Shown piece by piece: positions 1 to 62,440 of a stretch of DNA of 64,000 bases. This DNA comes from Eledone cirrhosa. Its lineage: Eukaryota. The number at the start of each line of letters is the position of its first letter. Position 1 is the stretch's first letter. The notes under the pieces are model-generated. The model searched no databases. It saw nothing but the letters and a program-made list of their open reading frames with translations, and had not been told where the DNA came from. Both the position numbers and the translations under genes were made by a program. The stretch covers positions 1-64,000 of the forward strand of contig CAXHJY010000529.1 in NCBI GenBank assembly GCA_964016885.1. The letters are read 5' to 3'.

Positions 1-3960
<3,960 letters not shown>

Positions 3961-11090: not shown

Positions 11091-11985
11091 TCATCGATCG
11101 ATCACGACTGAAGGTTCTGATTGAACTTGACTTTTTTCGTCATAATTCAAAGATTCTGTGTAAGTCTGTGAGGAATCTTTCATAGATGTTCGTGTATTCT
11201 TGCTTCGCTCCTTGATAACATCGCTTTGGTCGATGCAGAGAGCTTTGTAACAATCTTCAGGTGGTGCACCGACTTCAATGGTGAAATGTTGGTTGTGGTG
11301 CAATGTGGTCGAAGCTGTGTCAGTCTTGGAACTGGAGAAGACTGTGTCAAAAGCAACATGGTTTGAGGTACGAGCAGTATATTTCTTGTTAAAGGATAAA
11401 GTCCGAATGGAAGAAGATTCAGTTGAACTAGTATTGAAATTGGCCTTTTCACTGTTATCACATATAGGGATCACAGACTGAGCTGTGATGTTAGATTGCT
11501 TTGACAACTCTTGATACGTGCTACTAGTTTTACCATTCAATATTAACACATCATCATCAGAGAGAGATACTGGACTAGGAGGCATATTACTGTCAAAACT
11601 GTCATTTGATCCAGCCTGGTATTTGGCTGTTACTTTCGTCATGTCTGATACTGCTTGTAGATTGTTATTATCATTGTTGATGTTTATATTACTACTACAG
11701 CTGGTCTTTGTATCAGAATGTGACGGTGTAGGAAAGAGGTTCAAGATATTTTTCTTTGTTTTTTTAATAGCGCTTAAAACAGCTGGATATTCCCGCAAAT
11801 ATATCAATTCTACATCATGGTTCTCATTTTCTGTTTTTGATATGGTAACTCCAAGACAAACTGAGCTGACCGTTTCTTTGAGAAATTCTTCTGATTTCAT
11901 AGTAAATATCAAGGTGGGACATGTCTCTTTCAGTTCCTCACATGTCATACCAGTGCTCGTGGCTACATCTTGTAAAATGATGCAC
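11091..11985 (-). CDS. BCOR: BCOR/BCORL1-like gene, terminal coding exon (divergent PUFD C-terminal part plus long Ser/Thr-rich tail)
   Basis: Acceptor ctctatttcAG (11986-11987); phase 2 matches exon 13011-13158 (AA|G = Lys); open to TGA at 11091; CIILQDV...FTMKSEEF...VELIYL aligns loosely with PUFD (NWLLLSDV...VTIAEAEF...LDLVEF). Confidence 0.8.
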
Positions 11986-12419
11986 CTGAAATAGAGATAT
12001 AGAAATTCATTTAAAAATAATAAAATAAAGATAGTGGGGAAAATACTTACATGTAAAATTACATACATTGATAATGTTTCAAATTCTATTAGTTTGGATT
12101 TAATTCCTTTGATACCCATTTGAAACAATCCTGGTTTAATGATACACAACTGCTCAGTTTAATATTTTTATAGTTACATTAAGAACCTTCTATCATAATT
12201 TTATTTAAGAAATATTTATTAAATAATGTTTTTTAAGTAAATCTTTGAAACATCAGCATACTAATAAAAAAATTATCTCATTAAATTCTTCAAATTTTCA
12301 GCATTAATTGATATATGTAGGCAATATATTTCATTAGAAATATAGTATGTATGTACATACGGTCCTGTAACTCCTGATAATGTCGTACGGGAGCTGTATT
12401 GATATATGGCATTTCTTGG

Positions 12420-22229: not shown

Positions 22230-22525
22230 CAGGCGTGTGTTAGCCTAGTGGTAAAGGTGTTGGACTTAAGATCATAATGTTGTGGGTTCGATTCCTGGGC
22301 TGGGTTGTGTGTTGTGATCTTGAGTCAAAAATACTTCATTTCACGTTGCTCCAGTATATTCAGCTGAAAATGAGTACCACTAATAGCTGGAGGCTTAACC
22401 CTGTGTTGGATTAGCGTCCTGGCCAGTGAGTGAGGTGGGGTGAGTTTTGTATTCTCAGTCGCTTCACGTCACAAAAACCAAGGATAAACACTGGCCTGAT
22501 GAACGTCTAAGCTCGAGAGACATAC
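22230..22525 (+). mobile_element. CORE-type tRNA SINE (S2 variant with a different 3' tail)
   Basis: tagcctagtggtaaag..gggttcgattcctgg..tttcacgttgctccag..aaatgagtacc. Confidence 0.85.
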
Positions 22526-24719: not shown

Positions 24720-24900
24720 TCATCATCATCGTTTAACGTCAATTTTCCACGCTACCATGGGTTAGACGGGTTGTCCCAATTGAGGCAAGCTGGGTCAGGT
24801 GACCGTGTGTTACTCATACAGAACTGTTTCTGGCTTGCTTTCTACGGCTAAATGTCCTTCCTAACACCAATCACATTTACAGTGTGCTGGGTGCTTTTTG
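24720..24900 (-). mobile_element. SINE S3 / RTE-type tail
   Basis: catcatcatcgtttaacgtc..ttttccacgctaccatggg..gtccttcctaacaccaa. Confidence 0.75.
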
Positions 24901-24910
24901 TATATATAAA

Positions 24911-25310
24911 TGTGGTTGGCGTTAGGAAGGGCATCCAGCTTTAGAAATCAAGCCAAAATCAGTCGTGGGTGAGCAGAACACGGTCCTCTGACCTGATTCT
25001 CTCCCAAAGTGAAGGCGCATGGCTTAGTGGTTAGAACATTGAAATCGAAAGGTTGTGAGTTCAATTCTCGGACCGAGTGATGTGCTGTTTCCTTGAGCAA
25101 GTCACTTTATTTCCCGTTGCTCCAGTTTACTCAGCTGTAGAAATGAGATGATAGGACTGAGGTCCTTCTCATTAAATCACCCAAGATACCTCCAACGAGA
25201 TATACCTTGGAGGAGGCCAGCTAAACCTGCATAGTTGTGAGCTGTCCCACACAAAGGGTCAGCTCGTCCTACCCATGCTAGCGTAGAAAATGGACGTTAA
25301 ACAACGATGA
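24911..25310 (+). mobile_element. SINE S3 interrupted by a nested S2 SINE (25012-25246)
   Basis: tggttggcgttaggaagggcatccagc...[S2]...cccatgctagcgtagaaaatggacgttaaac. Confidence 0.8.
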
Positions 25311-25374
25311 TATATATATATATATACACAGAGAGGGGGGGGGGGGGTCATGGAAGAAGGAATTATTTGCTTAC

Positions 25375-25520
25375 CTTTCAGTAAATTTATCATCTTCCCC
25401 GACCTTGCTATCTTTATTGGAGACTTGCCACTGTATGTGGTCAAGAGAGGGTCAGCACCAAAGGCCAGAAGTAATCGAACCATTTCCAAATGGTCGTTTT
25501 CCACAGCATCGTGAATTGGT
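25375..25520 (-). CDS. BCOR: BCOR-like exon, third ankyrin repeat: (R)[48 protein letters not shown]
   Basis: Acceptor tatttgcAG (25521-25522), donor GTaagc (25373-25374); 146 nt, phase 2 to 1; close to [36 protein letters not shown]. Confidence 0.93.
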
Positions 25521-26089
25521 CTGCAAATAAATATAGAGATAATAATAATAATAATTGTTTCTTTATTGGCCACAAGGGCTAACATGAAGAAAAAGATTAC
25601 AAACGGCACAGAACGGTACAAAGTGGGTTTGGACCGTGTAAAAAGGTTTTAACAAGATAGAAATAAAAAATAAAAAATTCCCCAAAAAGGTGGAAACCTC
25701 CGAGGGCCACTCGTAATAATAATAATGCTTTCTTTATTAACCAGAAGGGTCGACATAAAGTATAACATTAAGGATGGTACAAATGGGCATTTCTGCGTGT
25801 AAAAATAATTATATATATAAAAAAAAAAAAAAACAAAGGATGTAACAAAAAAATGAGAATAAAGAAGAAATTCCGAAATAGGGGAGGGGGTGGGGGGAGA
25901 CTTCCGAGGGCCACACGTGGAGAAAGCCCATAATAATAACGGTGACATCATTTGTATTACAATTGAAGTAAAATGTGTGTATTATCAAATGTTTGCCTCG
26001 GGTATCATCTTGACACTCGACATGGGAGAGAAGCAGAACTCAAAGGAAGTTTCAAATATATGTATATATGTATATATATTATATATGTA

Positions 26090-26290
26090 GATTCCTAAAG
26101 GGGATCGGGAGGTGACCAGAGTTGAAGAAGGTACTCAATACATTGGTAGAGTATAGGTATCCTTATTTGATATAGAGAAGACTTCTACAGGACTAGAACT
26201 GTTTCATTCATATGAAATCACCAAGGACATTCCTGATGATTTCATACGAATGAAACAGCTGTAGTCCTGCAGAAGCCATTTCTATATCAA

Positions 26291-26292
<2 letters not shown>
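26090..26292. mobile_element. Penelope-like fold-back element, family B, with hammerhead core on +
   Basis: Imperfect palindrome 26165-26292; CTGATGA 26233-26239, GAAA 26252-26255, C-AGCT-G-TA; related copy at 62260-62440. Confidence 0.7.
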
Positions 26293-26372
<80 letters not shown>

Positions 26373-27998: not shown

Positions 27999-28094
27999 TT
28001 AGAAAGAACCGGGTCTCGTTTCGACTCTAGAATTAGTCTGGAACTAGCTGTCGAAACGGCAAGCGCTCTGCCGCCGTGACCCGGCTCTTTCTAA
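27999..28094. mobile_element. Penelope-like fold-back relic related to family A
   Basis: Inverted ends ttagaaagaaccgggtc / gacccggctctttctaa; gtc-GAAA-CGGC-aagcgctct-GCCG. Confidence 0.55.
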
Positions 28095-28101
28095 CACACA
28101 C

Positions 28102-34436: not shown

Positions 34437-34530
34437 AGCAAATATTAGAGTCATCTTATTTGTTATTTCTGTACATTGCACACACACACACACACACACA
34501 CACAAACGTACACATTATCTATATATATAA

Positions 34531-34653
34531 CGGAGTAGTTGTGGTAAGGAACCAGATGGACCATAACGCACCAGAGTACTCAATACTTAGGGTAGTAGCA
34601 ATAGTAGAAATAGCCGTCGAAACGACTTGAGCTCTGCCGTCGGGGTCCTACTT

Positions 34654-34657
<4 letters not shown>
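34531..34657. mobile_element. Penelope-like element, family A, rearranged (antisense tail joined to sense hammerhead 3' half)
   Basis: gtggtaaggaaccagatggaccataacgcacc..gtactcaata followed by agaaatagccgtcGAAAcgac..gccgTCggggtc. Confidence 0.7.
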
Positions 34658-34915
<258 letters not shown>

Positions 34916-34926
34916 TATACATATAT

Positions 34927-35116
34927 ATAGGAACCAGTAAGACCCCGACAGCTGAGCTCAAGCCGTTTCGACGGCTAATTCAGAATTAGCCGTCGAAACG
35001 GCTTGAGCTCAGCTGTCGGGGTCTTACTGGTTCCTATTACCCACTCTACTACCTCAAGTATTGAGTACTTTGGTGCGTTATGGTCCACCTGGTTCCTTAC
35101 CACATTTCCTTCGTTA
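34927..35116. mobile_element. Penelope-like element, family A, with a perfect 55-bp-arm palindrome
   Basis: 34927-34981 is the exact reverse complement of 34983-35037; contains GAAA-CGGC-ttgagctca-GCTG-TC; 3' tail continues to 35116. Confidence 0.8.
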
Positions 35117-35125
35117 TATATATAT

Positions 35126-35185
<60 letters not shown>

Positions 35186-35494
35186 GATATATATTTAATA
35201 TAAAATTGAATAATATATATATATATATATATATATGTTTGATATAATATATATATATTATATTTATTATATTTTACTAAATTCCTGGCGATTCTAGGTT
35301 TCGATTTCTGTATAGAACGGCTTTGATTAATTCGTTAATGTCCTTCAGAGCCGCGTGAAAGTTACCGATATTTATCGATTAATCTCTTCCCCCACCCCAC
35401 CGACTTCTCCATCCCACCCACACACACACACTTCACCCTCGATATCCCGCTAGAAGATATCACAGTTTCATGTCTATGCATTAAAAAATATATA

Positions 35495-47790: not shown

Positions 47791-47917
47791 TATTAAAATA
47801 ACAGATTAAAGTTTAAGCAAAGAATCGCTGCTTTCACCCTTAACGGGAGTTTCAGACGATCCCGTTAAGGGTGAAAGCAGCGATTCTTTGCTTAAACTTT
47901 AATCTGTTATTTTAATA
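47791..47917. mobile_element. Penelope-like fold-back element, family C (58-bp perfect arms, 11-nt loop)
   Basis: 47791-47848 is the reverse complement of 47860-47917; loop and right arm read CaGACGA-tCCCgttaaGGGt-GAAA. Confidence 0.65.
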
Positions 47918-47984
47918 TATATATATCTATATATATATATATATATATAACGTTGTGACAGATAACTCCATTAATTCGGGAATC

Positions 47985-48077
47985 CACAAGTCTGATGAGC
48001 TAGCGATTCCAGAGTCAGGCATGATCACTCCTGATCGTACCTTGAGTTGATCGATCGTGAAACGCGCGTCGCGTGTG
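47985..48077 (+). ncRNA. Putative type I hammerhead ribozyme, Penelope-type, with extended stem II
   Basis: cacaagt-CTGATGA(47992-47998)-gctagcgat...atcgatcgt-GAAA-C-GCGC-G-TC(48070)-gcgtgtg, then AATAAA at 48078. Confidence 0.75.
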
Positions 48078-48794
48078 AATAAACACAATGATGTTATGTT
48101 GATACTTCTTTCCTACTCCATATATGTGTGTGTGCGTGTGTGTACAATATATATATATATGTATATAATAGAATATAACCTATAATACACCACACGCACC
48201 CACATTTATATCTGTGTCTTGTTTATATATATATATGTATCGTACTAAAGTTATAATTAGCCGTTTACACTCTACTAAGACCAATTATAAATAACAAATA
48301 AAAAAGAGCCAACCGGTGTAAAACAAGTTACAAACGTCACCCCATAATATGCCCGGAGAACAAATATCAATGTTAATATGTCTGTACCAACAAGCTGAAT
48401 CACTGATAACAATGATTAATAATGTTAAAAACTGACTAAAATTCCGGTTTGAAAATAAAAAATATTAAAAGCAGATGTCTAGACGAATTAATTTATAAAA
48501 TAATAAAACATTTGTCTTAAACGTAACCAGCGATTATAAGACTGTAGAAGCAGCTTTTAATGTGTATTTGTGTTTGTGTGAAAGTGCGTGTGTGTGTGTG
48601 TGTGTGTTTTTGTTTGTTTGTTTGTTTGTTGAAATTTTATAGCTGGAGTTGTAATAATGGAAAGTAGTGTAATAATTATTATAAGAGGCAACCGAAATTT
48701 ATAGCTAAATCAAACCGGTTATCCACTAGAATTGGTTTACCATACAGATATAGTCATTATAATTTAAAATTGATAGCTATATGCTGTAAGACTT

Positions 48795-49923: not shown

Positions 49924-50013
49924 TAACGAAGAAAATGTGGTAAGGAACCAGGTGGACCATAACGCACCAAAGTACTCAATACTTAGGGTAGTAGAGTGGG
50001 GTCCTACTCGTTC

Positions 50014-50017
<4 letters not shown>
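49924..50017 (-). mobile_element. Penelope-like family A 3' tail fragment
   Basis: gtggtaaggaaccaggtggaccataacgcaccaaagtactcaatac. Confidence 0.75.
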
Positions 50018-50175: not shown

Positions 50176-52189
50176 CACTATGTATGCGTGTGTGCCTGAA
50201 GCACTAAAAGATATGTAGGAAAAGGTAGGGGGGGGTATGTATTGTCATTAACGGTAATGGGTTGTGTTTGCTTATTGCACATTAAGTTTCCCAGGAATCA
50301 GACTCCAGTCACTCAGTCTGACTGACTGCAAGGTTATCAATATATTTGTCATCAGTTCGATCAGTACAGCAATCATTTACATAATCACTTCTCCTCTTAG
50401 GAGAAGTGATTATGTAAATGATTCATAGCGTTATTGTTGCTGTTGTTGCTGTTACTGTATTTTGTGTTTGTGTATATATATGATGGTGGTATGGTGGTAA
50501 TGGTGGTGGTGGTATGGTGGTGGTGGTGGTGATGGTGGTATGGTGGTGGTGGTGATGGTGGTATGGTGGTATGGTGGTGGTGGTGGTAATGGTGGTGGTG
50601 GTGGTGGTATGGTGGTGGTGGTGGTGGTGGAATAAAGAATTGCCGCAATGACAGGCAGACAAGGTGGGGTGGGGTGGGGTAGGAGGGTGGTGTGGGTGAG
50701 AAGAAGGAACGTGAAATGAAATATGGCAGCTGGAAAGGTGGTGATGGTGATGGTGATGATGGTGTATGGTAATGGAATGAGAGACAGGGGGGGGGGGACA
50801 TTAAAATGACGTCTATAGCGTAAGAGTAGCAGTGAGAGAGAGAGAGGGAGGGGGGAGAATAAGGGCTAGAAGGGAAACTTCAAGACGTCAGATTGATAGA
50901 GAGATAGGCAGGAGAGTTAATCCGGAGAAAGAGACAAGGGGACAGAGGGGGAAGGAGAGGGAGAGAGCAGGAGGGGGAGAGAGAGGGAGAGAGCAGGAGG
51001 GGGAGAGGGGCGGAAAGGGAGATCAGTCAATGCGTTTAAAATGATACATGAAGGTGACTGGTGGCGCTGCGGTGCTAGAGATGCTTATTATTGGTTATTG
51101 ATTGACGTCTTAGGATCAGACACGATAGAAACTTTACCCCCACCTCCACCAGGCACGATAGAAACCCTCCACCCCCGCTACCAACCATCACCACCACCAC
51201 GATAGAAACATTCCGCTCTCCACCACCACCACCACCATCATCATCACCACCACATTAGGATCAGACACGATAGAAACGACCCCCCCCCCCCTCCACCACA
51301 TATATATTACATAAGGTCACTAGAAGAAGAAAGAAAAAAAGAACGAGAAGCGGAAGAATAAATAAGAGAAATGTGAAAAAGAAAAAGAAGGATAAGGAGA
51401 AAGAGAAGAAAGCAAAGAAGAAGGTAAAGAAGGCAAAGAAGAAGGTAAAGAAGGCAAAGAAGAAGGTAAAGAAGGCAAAGAAGAAGAAGGTAAAGAAGGC
51501 AAAGAAGAAGAAAAAAAAGAAAAAGAAGAAAAGCGGAATAGAAGGTAGGAGAAGAAGGAAACTGTGGGAAGGGAAGTTACCTACTTCTTTTGTTTGTTGT
51601 TGTTGTTGTTGTGATGATGGAAGGAGAAAAGTAGATTGAAAAGATCGACATAGTTAGATAAGGATATGGCGGGGGGGGGGGGGGTGACGTAATAGAAAGA
51701 TGGGGAGGAGGAGGAGGAGGAGGAGGAAGGTAGTAGAGAAAAAATAAAAAACGAACGATAAAAAAACTAGGAGAATGTGAGTGGTGAGGGTGGTGGTGGT
51801 GTGATGGGGAGGGGGAAGGTAGTGTGTGGTAGTGGAGGGTGAGGGTGGTGGTGGTGGGATTTTGTGATAGGGGAGGGAGGTGGTGGTGTGTCGGTTACGG
51901 TAGAAGCAGTATCGTAATGAAATAGAGAACGAACTTATAACTGAAGAGATAGTGGAAACTGGGTATAGTGATATTGTAGTGGGGGGTGAGGTATAGTGGT
52001 GGGATGGGGAAAGACGATAATATTGGGTGTGGCAGATTCCCTGTGTGTGTGTGTGAGTATGTATGAATGTGTATATGTGTGTAATGTGACAAAGTTCAGG
52101 AAACAGATTGCAGTTTTTCGGAGAGAGGGGAGGGATGCTGTTACGTAGTTGATTTTTTTCTAAAACCCATGTTCTTTTATTTTATAAAT

Positions 52190-62028: not shown

Positions 62029-62218
62029 AACAAAGGAATTGTGGTAAGGAACCAGATGGACCATAACGCACCAGAGTACTCAATACTTAAGGTAGTAGAG
62101 TGGGAAATAGGAAAAAGTATGACCCCGACGGCAGAGCTCAAGCCGTTTCGACGGCTATTTCTGGTCCAGAAATAGCCGTCGAAACGGCTTGAGCTCTGCC
62201 GTCGGGGTCATACTTTTT

Positions 62219-62223
<5 letters not shown>
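62029..62223. mobile_element. Penelope-like element, family A, with a perfect 58-bp-arm palindrome
   Basis: 62107-62164 is the reverse complement of 62166-62223; GAAA-CGGC-ttgagctct-GCCG-TC; antisense tail 62029-62106. Confidence 0.8.
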
Positions 62224-62259
<36 letters not shown>

Positions 62260-62266
<7 letters not shown>

Positions 62267-62438
62267 TGAGATTCTACAGGACTAGAACTGTTTCATTCTT
62301 TAGAAATCAACCTGATGATTTCTAAAGAATGAAACAGTTCTAGTCCTGTAGAATCTCATCTATATTAAAACTTTTATACTCTGCTATGTATTGAGTACCT
62401 TACTTACTGTGGTTACCTCCGATTCAACCCGGAATAAC

Positions 62439-62440
<2 letters not shown>
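62260..62440. mobile_element. Penelope-like element, family B, with a perfect 50-bp-arm palindrome
   Basis: 62260-62309 is the reverse complement of 62316-62365; CTGATGA 62312-62318, GAAA 62331-62334; tail contains tattgagtac. Confidence 0.75.

Follow-up and report, generated by a model that had tools for sequence, protein, structure and literature searches.

The 64,000-nt stretch of DNA analysed here (the window) is animal-like in character and rich in microsatellites. Its positions 1-3950, ~3.9 kb in all and of 7% GC, are (AT)n interrupted by ATGT/GTAT units. On the minus strand, a frame at 25262-25648 with an ankyrin-repeat match (Ank_5, E 3.9e-8) is probably a host exon, and a 355-codon frame at 11091-12158 gave no Pfam match. 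An AT-rich palindrome with 25-nt arms and without hammerhead letters lies at 50371-50423. The feature under study is an element of 190 bases at 34927-35116, embedded in (AT)n and made up of two exact inverted arms of 55 nt each around a single central base, plus a tail of ~78 nt on one side (Table 1). The perfect arms and the 1-nt centre had been described in an earlier reading made from the sequence only, and both were found as described; the longest arm in five base shuffles of the window measured only 9-12 nt. The palindrome is genuine and has a layout already known for Penelope-like elements; the palindrome itself is an ordinary and probably inert product.

Table 1. Parts of the palindromic element at 34927-35116, its flanks, and the related family A copies in the window
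Feature	Position	Strand	Remark
Left flank	34800..34926	.	(AT)n target
Short (tail-less) arm	34927..34981	-	Exact reverse complement of 34983-35037
Junction	34981..34983	.	CAG triplet, 1-nt centre A34982
Presumed helix II 3′ side	34983..34994	+	Position before GAAA
Hammerhead 3′ half	34995..35017	+	GAAA, helix III, self-complementary loop, GUC site
Helix I 3′ strand, presumed (GGGGTC), plus spacer up to fixed inner end	35018..35037	+	
Tail, ~78 nt	35038..35115	+	One side only, ends at fixed outer end
11-nt motif GTATTGAGTAC	35058..35068	+	Common to family A and B tails
Right flank	35116..35240	.	(AT)n target; target-site duplication unreadable in (AT)n
Asymmetric family A copy	34529..34657	-	Tailed arm ends at parent 35046; junction of 7 letters
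Asymmetric family A copy	49924..50017	-	Tailed arm stops at parent 35040, 3-nt GGG overlap
Second palindromic family A copy	62031..62223	-	58-nt arms, centre T62165

What can be recognised in the right arm is the 3′ half of a type I hammerhead, not a complete one. GAAA (34995-34998) is followed by a helix III of five pairs, C34999-T35003 with A35011-G35015, one of them G-U, around a self-complementary loop, TGAGCTCA (35004-35011), and then by GTC (35015-35017) and GGGGTC, with cleavage predicted after C35017. This succession of motifs had been read correctly, save that helix III is one pair longer than had been drawn. GTCGAAACG is unchanged in 4/4 aligned copies, and GAAA, the A15.1-U16.1 pair, helix III and an NUH site are present in three of the four; a distant relative at 28000 has GCC at the NUH-site position and another self-complementary loop (AGCGCT vs GAGCTC). 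The other half of the ribozyme had been said to be missing and replaced by a mirror copy, and no CUGANGA indeed lies upstream in the 34927 copy. Nor was it found in the 30 upstream letters of the loose contig ends of this family (family A), among the loose ends listed, so that the family A copy with an intact CUGANGA half that the sequence-only reading had called for was found neither in the window nor in that set. A 5′ partner for helix I was not found for family A, and the 5′ strand of helix II is unseen in every family A copy examined; for helix I and for a helix II closed by G10.1-C11.1, the sole partners in the 34927 copy come from the mirror of that copy. The left arm resembles the 5′ side of helix II only by virtue of mirroring the right arm, and the suggestion of a centre formed by the loop of a pre-existing stem II is left unconfirmed. 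With CUGANGA absent, the 34927 stub is predicted from its letters not to self-cleave. Positions 34988-35003 can form an alternative hairpin with a CGAA loop, and a GCCGTC that precedes GAAA recurs at the cleavage site as GCC/TGTC; this hairpin would thus compete with the hammerhead fold. An Rfam search over the window gave no match at the gathering score; the weak matches were to microRNA-type hairpin models on the palindrome or (AT)n, all under the cut-off. A complete-looking hammerhead with a helix II region of ~60 nt lies between (AT)n tracts at 47950-48120, and a similar motif begins at 22496. Long helix II domains may thus occur in this genome, and the CUGANGA of family A could then lie hidden far upstream.

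BLAST within the window identified four family A copies (34927, 62031, 34530 and 49926) and the distant relative at 28000; the inverted pair at 24793-24993 was considered and is not family A. Each family A copy in the window stands alone and has the inverted layout, and no tandem monomers with a complete hammerhead are present. The four copies share the same outer end and a near-identical inner end, both running into simple repeat, and the junction alone varies. The inner end (..TTCCTAT, then simple repeat) is identical at 62107 and 49926 and nearly so at 34530, with (AG)n following it in the 49926 copy. The tail of the 34927 copy recurs in the other three. The copy at 62031, referred to also as the 62107 copy, turns 3 nt further 5′ than 34982, at a GTC triplet, and its central T62165 belongs to the tail-less arm, the parent letter being taken from contig loose ends. 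The two arms of each of these palindromes agree with each other, and the 34927 arms, as had been noticed earlier, differ from the 62107 copy, namely at six positions (34986, 35011, 35014, 35024, 35029 and 35030); family A copies with differing centres are ~91% alike (12 differences in 132 columns). In the asymmetric 34530 copy the tail-less arm extends to parent 34982 and so exceeds the tailed arm by 64 nt on the 5′ side. In the 49926 copy the tail-less arm starts 0-3 nt after the predicted GUC cleavage site (n = 1), a single hint of run-off from cleaved RNA. In the relative at 28000-28095 the left arm lacks the helix III hairpin entirely (~19 nt), a gap of the kind that skipping over it would leave.

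Two sister families are present in the window. Family B (62256-62440 and 26087-26297) has the same palindrome-plus-tail layout and has retained CTGATGA, which occurs with GAAA at 26233 and 62312. ATTC stands between the likely helix I strand and the core in this family. The centres are ACCTGA at 62310 in the 62260 copy and 16 nt at 26221 in the 26087 copy. The arms of the latter differ at seven columns, and at five of these the tailed arm has the letter found in both 62260 arms, which would suit a reading of the two arms from two different templates; a 5-to-0 split has a ~6% chance (two-sided) under random ageing. Family C (47791-47917) is a palindrome with 58-nt arms and an 11-nt centre at 47849, its tail being tentative. 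Within that 11-nt centre are one strand of helix I and CAGACGA, which departs from the hammerhead core by a single letter. Both arms of the family B and C palindromes include helix II, and their centres lie 5′ of it (0/3 at helix II). The 11-nt motif GTATTGAGTAC is exact in all six family A and B tails (35058, 26131, 34576, 49972, 62076 and 62388) and has no further match with one mismatch or fewer anywhere in the 64-kb window. In the tails that allow both distances to be taken, it stands 20-23 nt from the inner and 42-47 nt from the outer end. A conserved tail hairpin was considered and is unsupported, the 11 pieces that were folded all lying within the range of their own shuffles (z -1.4 to +0.8). 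A reading frame is open from the centre through the whole tail (34979-35158) in both long family A copies, and a second frame nearby reads AVETA before a stop in loop III. The frame through the tail had no protein or Pfam match, the 44-codon query from the 62107 copy being a weak test, and its openness may be due to chance.

Family A is a high-copy family, with matches in 13,341 contigs of public run X3 (which carries another organism label and was aligned at 80% likeness), 39 of X1, which may be where this DNA comes from, and one of X2 (from another study). Pattern scans of viral, prokaryote-genome and metagenome contigs yielded no further family A loci. X1 contains exact contigs for 34984-35037 and 35008-35085, and the X2 contig covers 34984-35112 with zero differences. 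Behind 35037, loose (AT)n occurs in three X1 and 74 X3 contigs, which confirms the fixed inner end; loose ends at 35031, in 156 X3 contigs and one X1 contig, mark a subfamily in which GGGGTC stands further from the inner end owing to additional letters. Upstream of 34981, AATTTAGTC forms the end of two X1 contigs, which agree fully, and of 74 X3 contigs, with an agreement of 0.48; similar upstream letters are found in one X3 joint and in the 28000 relative. These letters are not the mirror, and they are missing from both perfect palindromes.

Family A junctions appear to cluster in ~16 nt just 5′ of GAAA. Four centre variants were recovered from X3 (2, 18, 2 and 1 contigs), and 14 of the 15 X3 joints listed out of 16, each found in one contig, join the left arm at 34968-34983 to 35031-35083. 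The clustering appears real because none of the 15 leaves the left arm at 34950-34967. Triplet microhomology was considered as the cause of the centre position and rejected, since such triplets occur at 19/55 positions. The arms also carry a polarity. Had one tail-primed cDNA produced both arms, its mirror could extend no further than the part copied before, and the tailed arm would have to be the one extending furthest 5′. The tail-less arm nevertheless reaches further 5′ in 4/6 securely tailed copies of the window, namely 34530 (by 64 nt), 49926 (~20 nt), 26087 (the 16-nt centre) and 62107 (one centre base, so that its polarity depends on a single letter), and the tailed arm does so at 34927 and 62260. 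This small sample was counted without the 28000 relative, whose tail is unidentifiable, and with the tentative family C copy at 47791 kept apart, the 11-nt centre of which also favours the tail-less arm. Because the arms carry copy-specific letters and the centres vary, the mirror was likely made anew at each insertion, as the sequence-only reading had held in proposing copying within each insertion. In the literature covered, in which most subscription papers, older Penelope reviews among them, are not represented, no paper was found that maps such junctions onto a hammerhead or scores arm polarity, and such work may well have been published.

The layout matches that reported for endonuclease-bearing (EN+) Penelope-like elements. 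Arkhipova et al. (2013; PMC3846280) describe inverted pseudo-LTRs with a one-sided tail and junction palindromes, for which self-priming was proposed, and Craig et al. (2021; PMC8557442) the same inverted-repeat-plus-tail layout with a 30-40-bp tail and (TA)n bias. The shared features are a head-to-head inverted and 5′-truncated copy with a junction palindrome, a tail on one end only and the (TA)n bias; of the hammerhead described for the terminal repeat, family A shows the 3′ half and family B CTGATGA with GAAA. An inverted 5′-truncated terminus with a one-sided tail is found in six tailed copies of two families in the window, and all six tailed A and B copies lie in AT-rich or microsatellite sequence, with simple repeat at both ends. 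In comparison with the units in those two reports, only the terminus is left here, the tail is ~78 nt as opposed to 30-40, the truncation falls inside the hammerhead, and no parent ORF is linked to the element. The window holds 412 frames of 55 codons or more, 179 of them non-simple, and no RT or GIY-YIG domain was found by Pfam in the 150 of the 179 that were searched. The ORF for a telomerase-like RT with a GIY-YIG endonuclease would belong to the parent element, and its presence in a stub is not to be expected. Hammerheads in Penelope-like repeats were reported by Cervera and De la Pena (2014; PMC4209133), who also describe opposite-strand hammerhead pairs 100-700 bp apart, tied to truncated elements, and a Drosophila virilis intron that ends at helix I. 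The metazoan Penelope hammerheads they present share with the 34927 copy the type I order, GAAA, a self-complementary helix III loop and GUC; helix III is longer here (5 pairs), and CUGANGA and the helix I and helix II 5′ strands are missing from the 34927 copy. Non-LTR retrozymes, for which a preprint (bioRxiv 10.64898/2026.07.22.740005) and PMC8969392 provide context, differ from family A in consisting of tandem monomers that each have a complete type I hammerhead. The Penelope protein of a lizard (Poseidon of Anolis carolinensis) nicks and extends both strands at AT-rich DNA in vitro, from two RNA start sites that bound the tail, with no need of cleavage and with priming without target homology (Frangieh et al. 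2024; PMC11167929). Nicking and extension of both strands at AT-rich DNA and two tail-bounding starts would be common to Poseidon and the present element; the joining of the two cDNAs is not covered by that work, and its homology-free priming differs from the 2-3 nt match seen here.

Taken together, the 34927 element is best read as a heavily 5′-truncated Penelope-like insertion produced from two separately primed cDNAs that were joined, a reading to which we give a probability of roughly 0.6; membership of the stub among Penelope-like elements is likely. The element protein would nick both strands of the (AT)n, and each nick would start cDNA synthesis on the element RNA, one of them at the outer (35115) and the other at the inner site (35037). 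Both priming ends read TAT, like the target, and the two fixed RNA starts, ~78 nt apart, would flank the 11-nt motif, a candidate binding site that may position the two priming sites. The arm at 34927..34981 would then run from the fixed inner end to the centre and represent the cDNA primed at the inner site. Both cDNAs would often halt in or just past the structured hammerhead region, in this copy at 34982, perhaps owing to stalling at a helix foot, to the RNA 5′ end or to a splice boundary. Their 3′ ends would pair by a few bases (C-G, one mismatch, G-C) and repair would fix the join, the CAG triplet of the junction being the putative microhomology; the joining bases would be CAG at 34982, GTC at 62165 and GGG at 49998. 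Equal stops would yield a perfect palindrome and unequal stops an asymmetric copy, although a copy that was inserted as a full palindrome could become asymmetric through a later deletion as well. The agreement between the arms of the 34927 copy would be explained by a common template, since one RNA or one source locus likely served for both. The fixed ends, the variable centres and the longer tail-less arms support the reading as two joined cDNAs; the length of the tail (~78 nt vs 30-40 nt in the published units) and the match of the ends to the target by 2-3 nt are points that it has to face. In twin priming of the mammalian L1, cDNA synthesis starts from two nicks in the target and the two products are linked through microhomology, with an inversion as the outcome; the second primer acts at variable internal sites, and the pieces barely overlap. 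Here, by contrast, the second site is fixed near the 3′ end, and the two pieces therefore overlap and form a palindrome.

It is unlikely, but deserves weighing, that one cDNA (or an antisense RNA) primed itself by chance microhomology near a stall, later deletions or repair having reshaped the copies. Palindromes are deletion-prone and their arms can be homogenised, and later deletion or arm-to-arm repair could give both the 1-nt centres and the asymmetric copies; the 47791 copy has a GGGA/TCCC stem around an 11-nt loop that a single strand could form. For Penelope-like elements, PMC3846280 put forward an antisense template. Chance self-priming would, however, require one-sided deletions that spared the tail-less arm in 14 of the 15 joints listed, would not produce two different variants in the 26087 arms, and leaves the fixed inner end unexplained.

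The sequence-only reading had favoured a more specific course, in which a single tail-primed cDNA snapped back on a pre-existing helix II hairpin and copied itself, so that the ribozyme fold dictated where the inverted terminus formed. One part of it stood, in that the family A junctions do lie just 5′ of GAAA. The identity of the arms within a copy, the self-priming proposed for Penelope junction palindromes (PMC3846280), a GGCTA in one X1 loose end that could pair with TAGCC, and the natural upstream letters kept between the arms of the 28000 relative are all in keeping with it. Those letters would have to remain as a loop, yet both perfect palindromes lack them and have a loop of 1 nt instead. 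A 1-nt loop cannot be an intramolecular hairpin. The cDNA strand folds in the presumed helix II region at -7.0 kcal/mol, and the loop of its strongest hairpin (34994-34997) falls not at the centre but 12-15 nt away. Furthermore, the polarity is wrong in 4/6 tailed copies, families B and C have their centres 5′ of helix II, and the stop of the mirror at one fixed inner site is unexplained. We therefore regard the snap-back as quite improbable.

Less probable again is a ready-made palindromic non-autonomous element (MITE-like or retrozyme-like) that was copied whole. The high copy number, the length of ~190 nt and the lack of coding capacity would suit such an element, and retrozymes have been tied to Penelope terminal repeats (bioRxiv 10.64898/2026.07.22.740005), but the centres differ among copies that are ~91% alike as well as among the four X3 variants, the tail is one-sided and there are no tandem units. 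Finally, a sequencing or assembly fold-back artefact is hardly credible even though none of the contigs listed spans the whole element or bridges 34982 under a 31-letter rule, because the mirror ends at a family-fixed point, the two flanks differ, arm-to-(AT)n and arm-to-tail joints are both present in short-read contigs of X1 and X3, and neither imperfect arms (26087 and 28000) nor asymmetric copies can be fold-backs.

A further proposal, which we consider a long shot, concerns the hammerhead and could hold alongside two joined cDNAs. The family A ribozyme might be split by an intron and complete only after splicing, with the unspliced RNA serving as the template. Upstream of the centre the sequence is AT-rich, with TTTAG and CCAG as its endings and no CUGANGA within 30 nt, and it looks like a 3′ splice site with its AG at 34982-34983. 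If this were true, both cDNAs would stop at the splice boundary and half-ribozyme palindromes would flood the genome; the element would carry a splice-gated ribozyme that is also a truncation hot spot for two-cDNA insertion.

For the formation of the inverted ends of Penelope-like elements, self-priming was proposed in 2013 (PMC3846280), and two-strand, two-site priming, though not the joining step, was seen in vitro in 2024 (PMC11167929). Very short, high-copy stubs such as those of family A record both cDNA ends, and the 11-nt motif of their tails provides a candidate binding site. Which arm owns the centre letters would be a simple discriminator between the two models that can be applied genome-wide, and the small sample available here favours two cDNAs.
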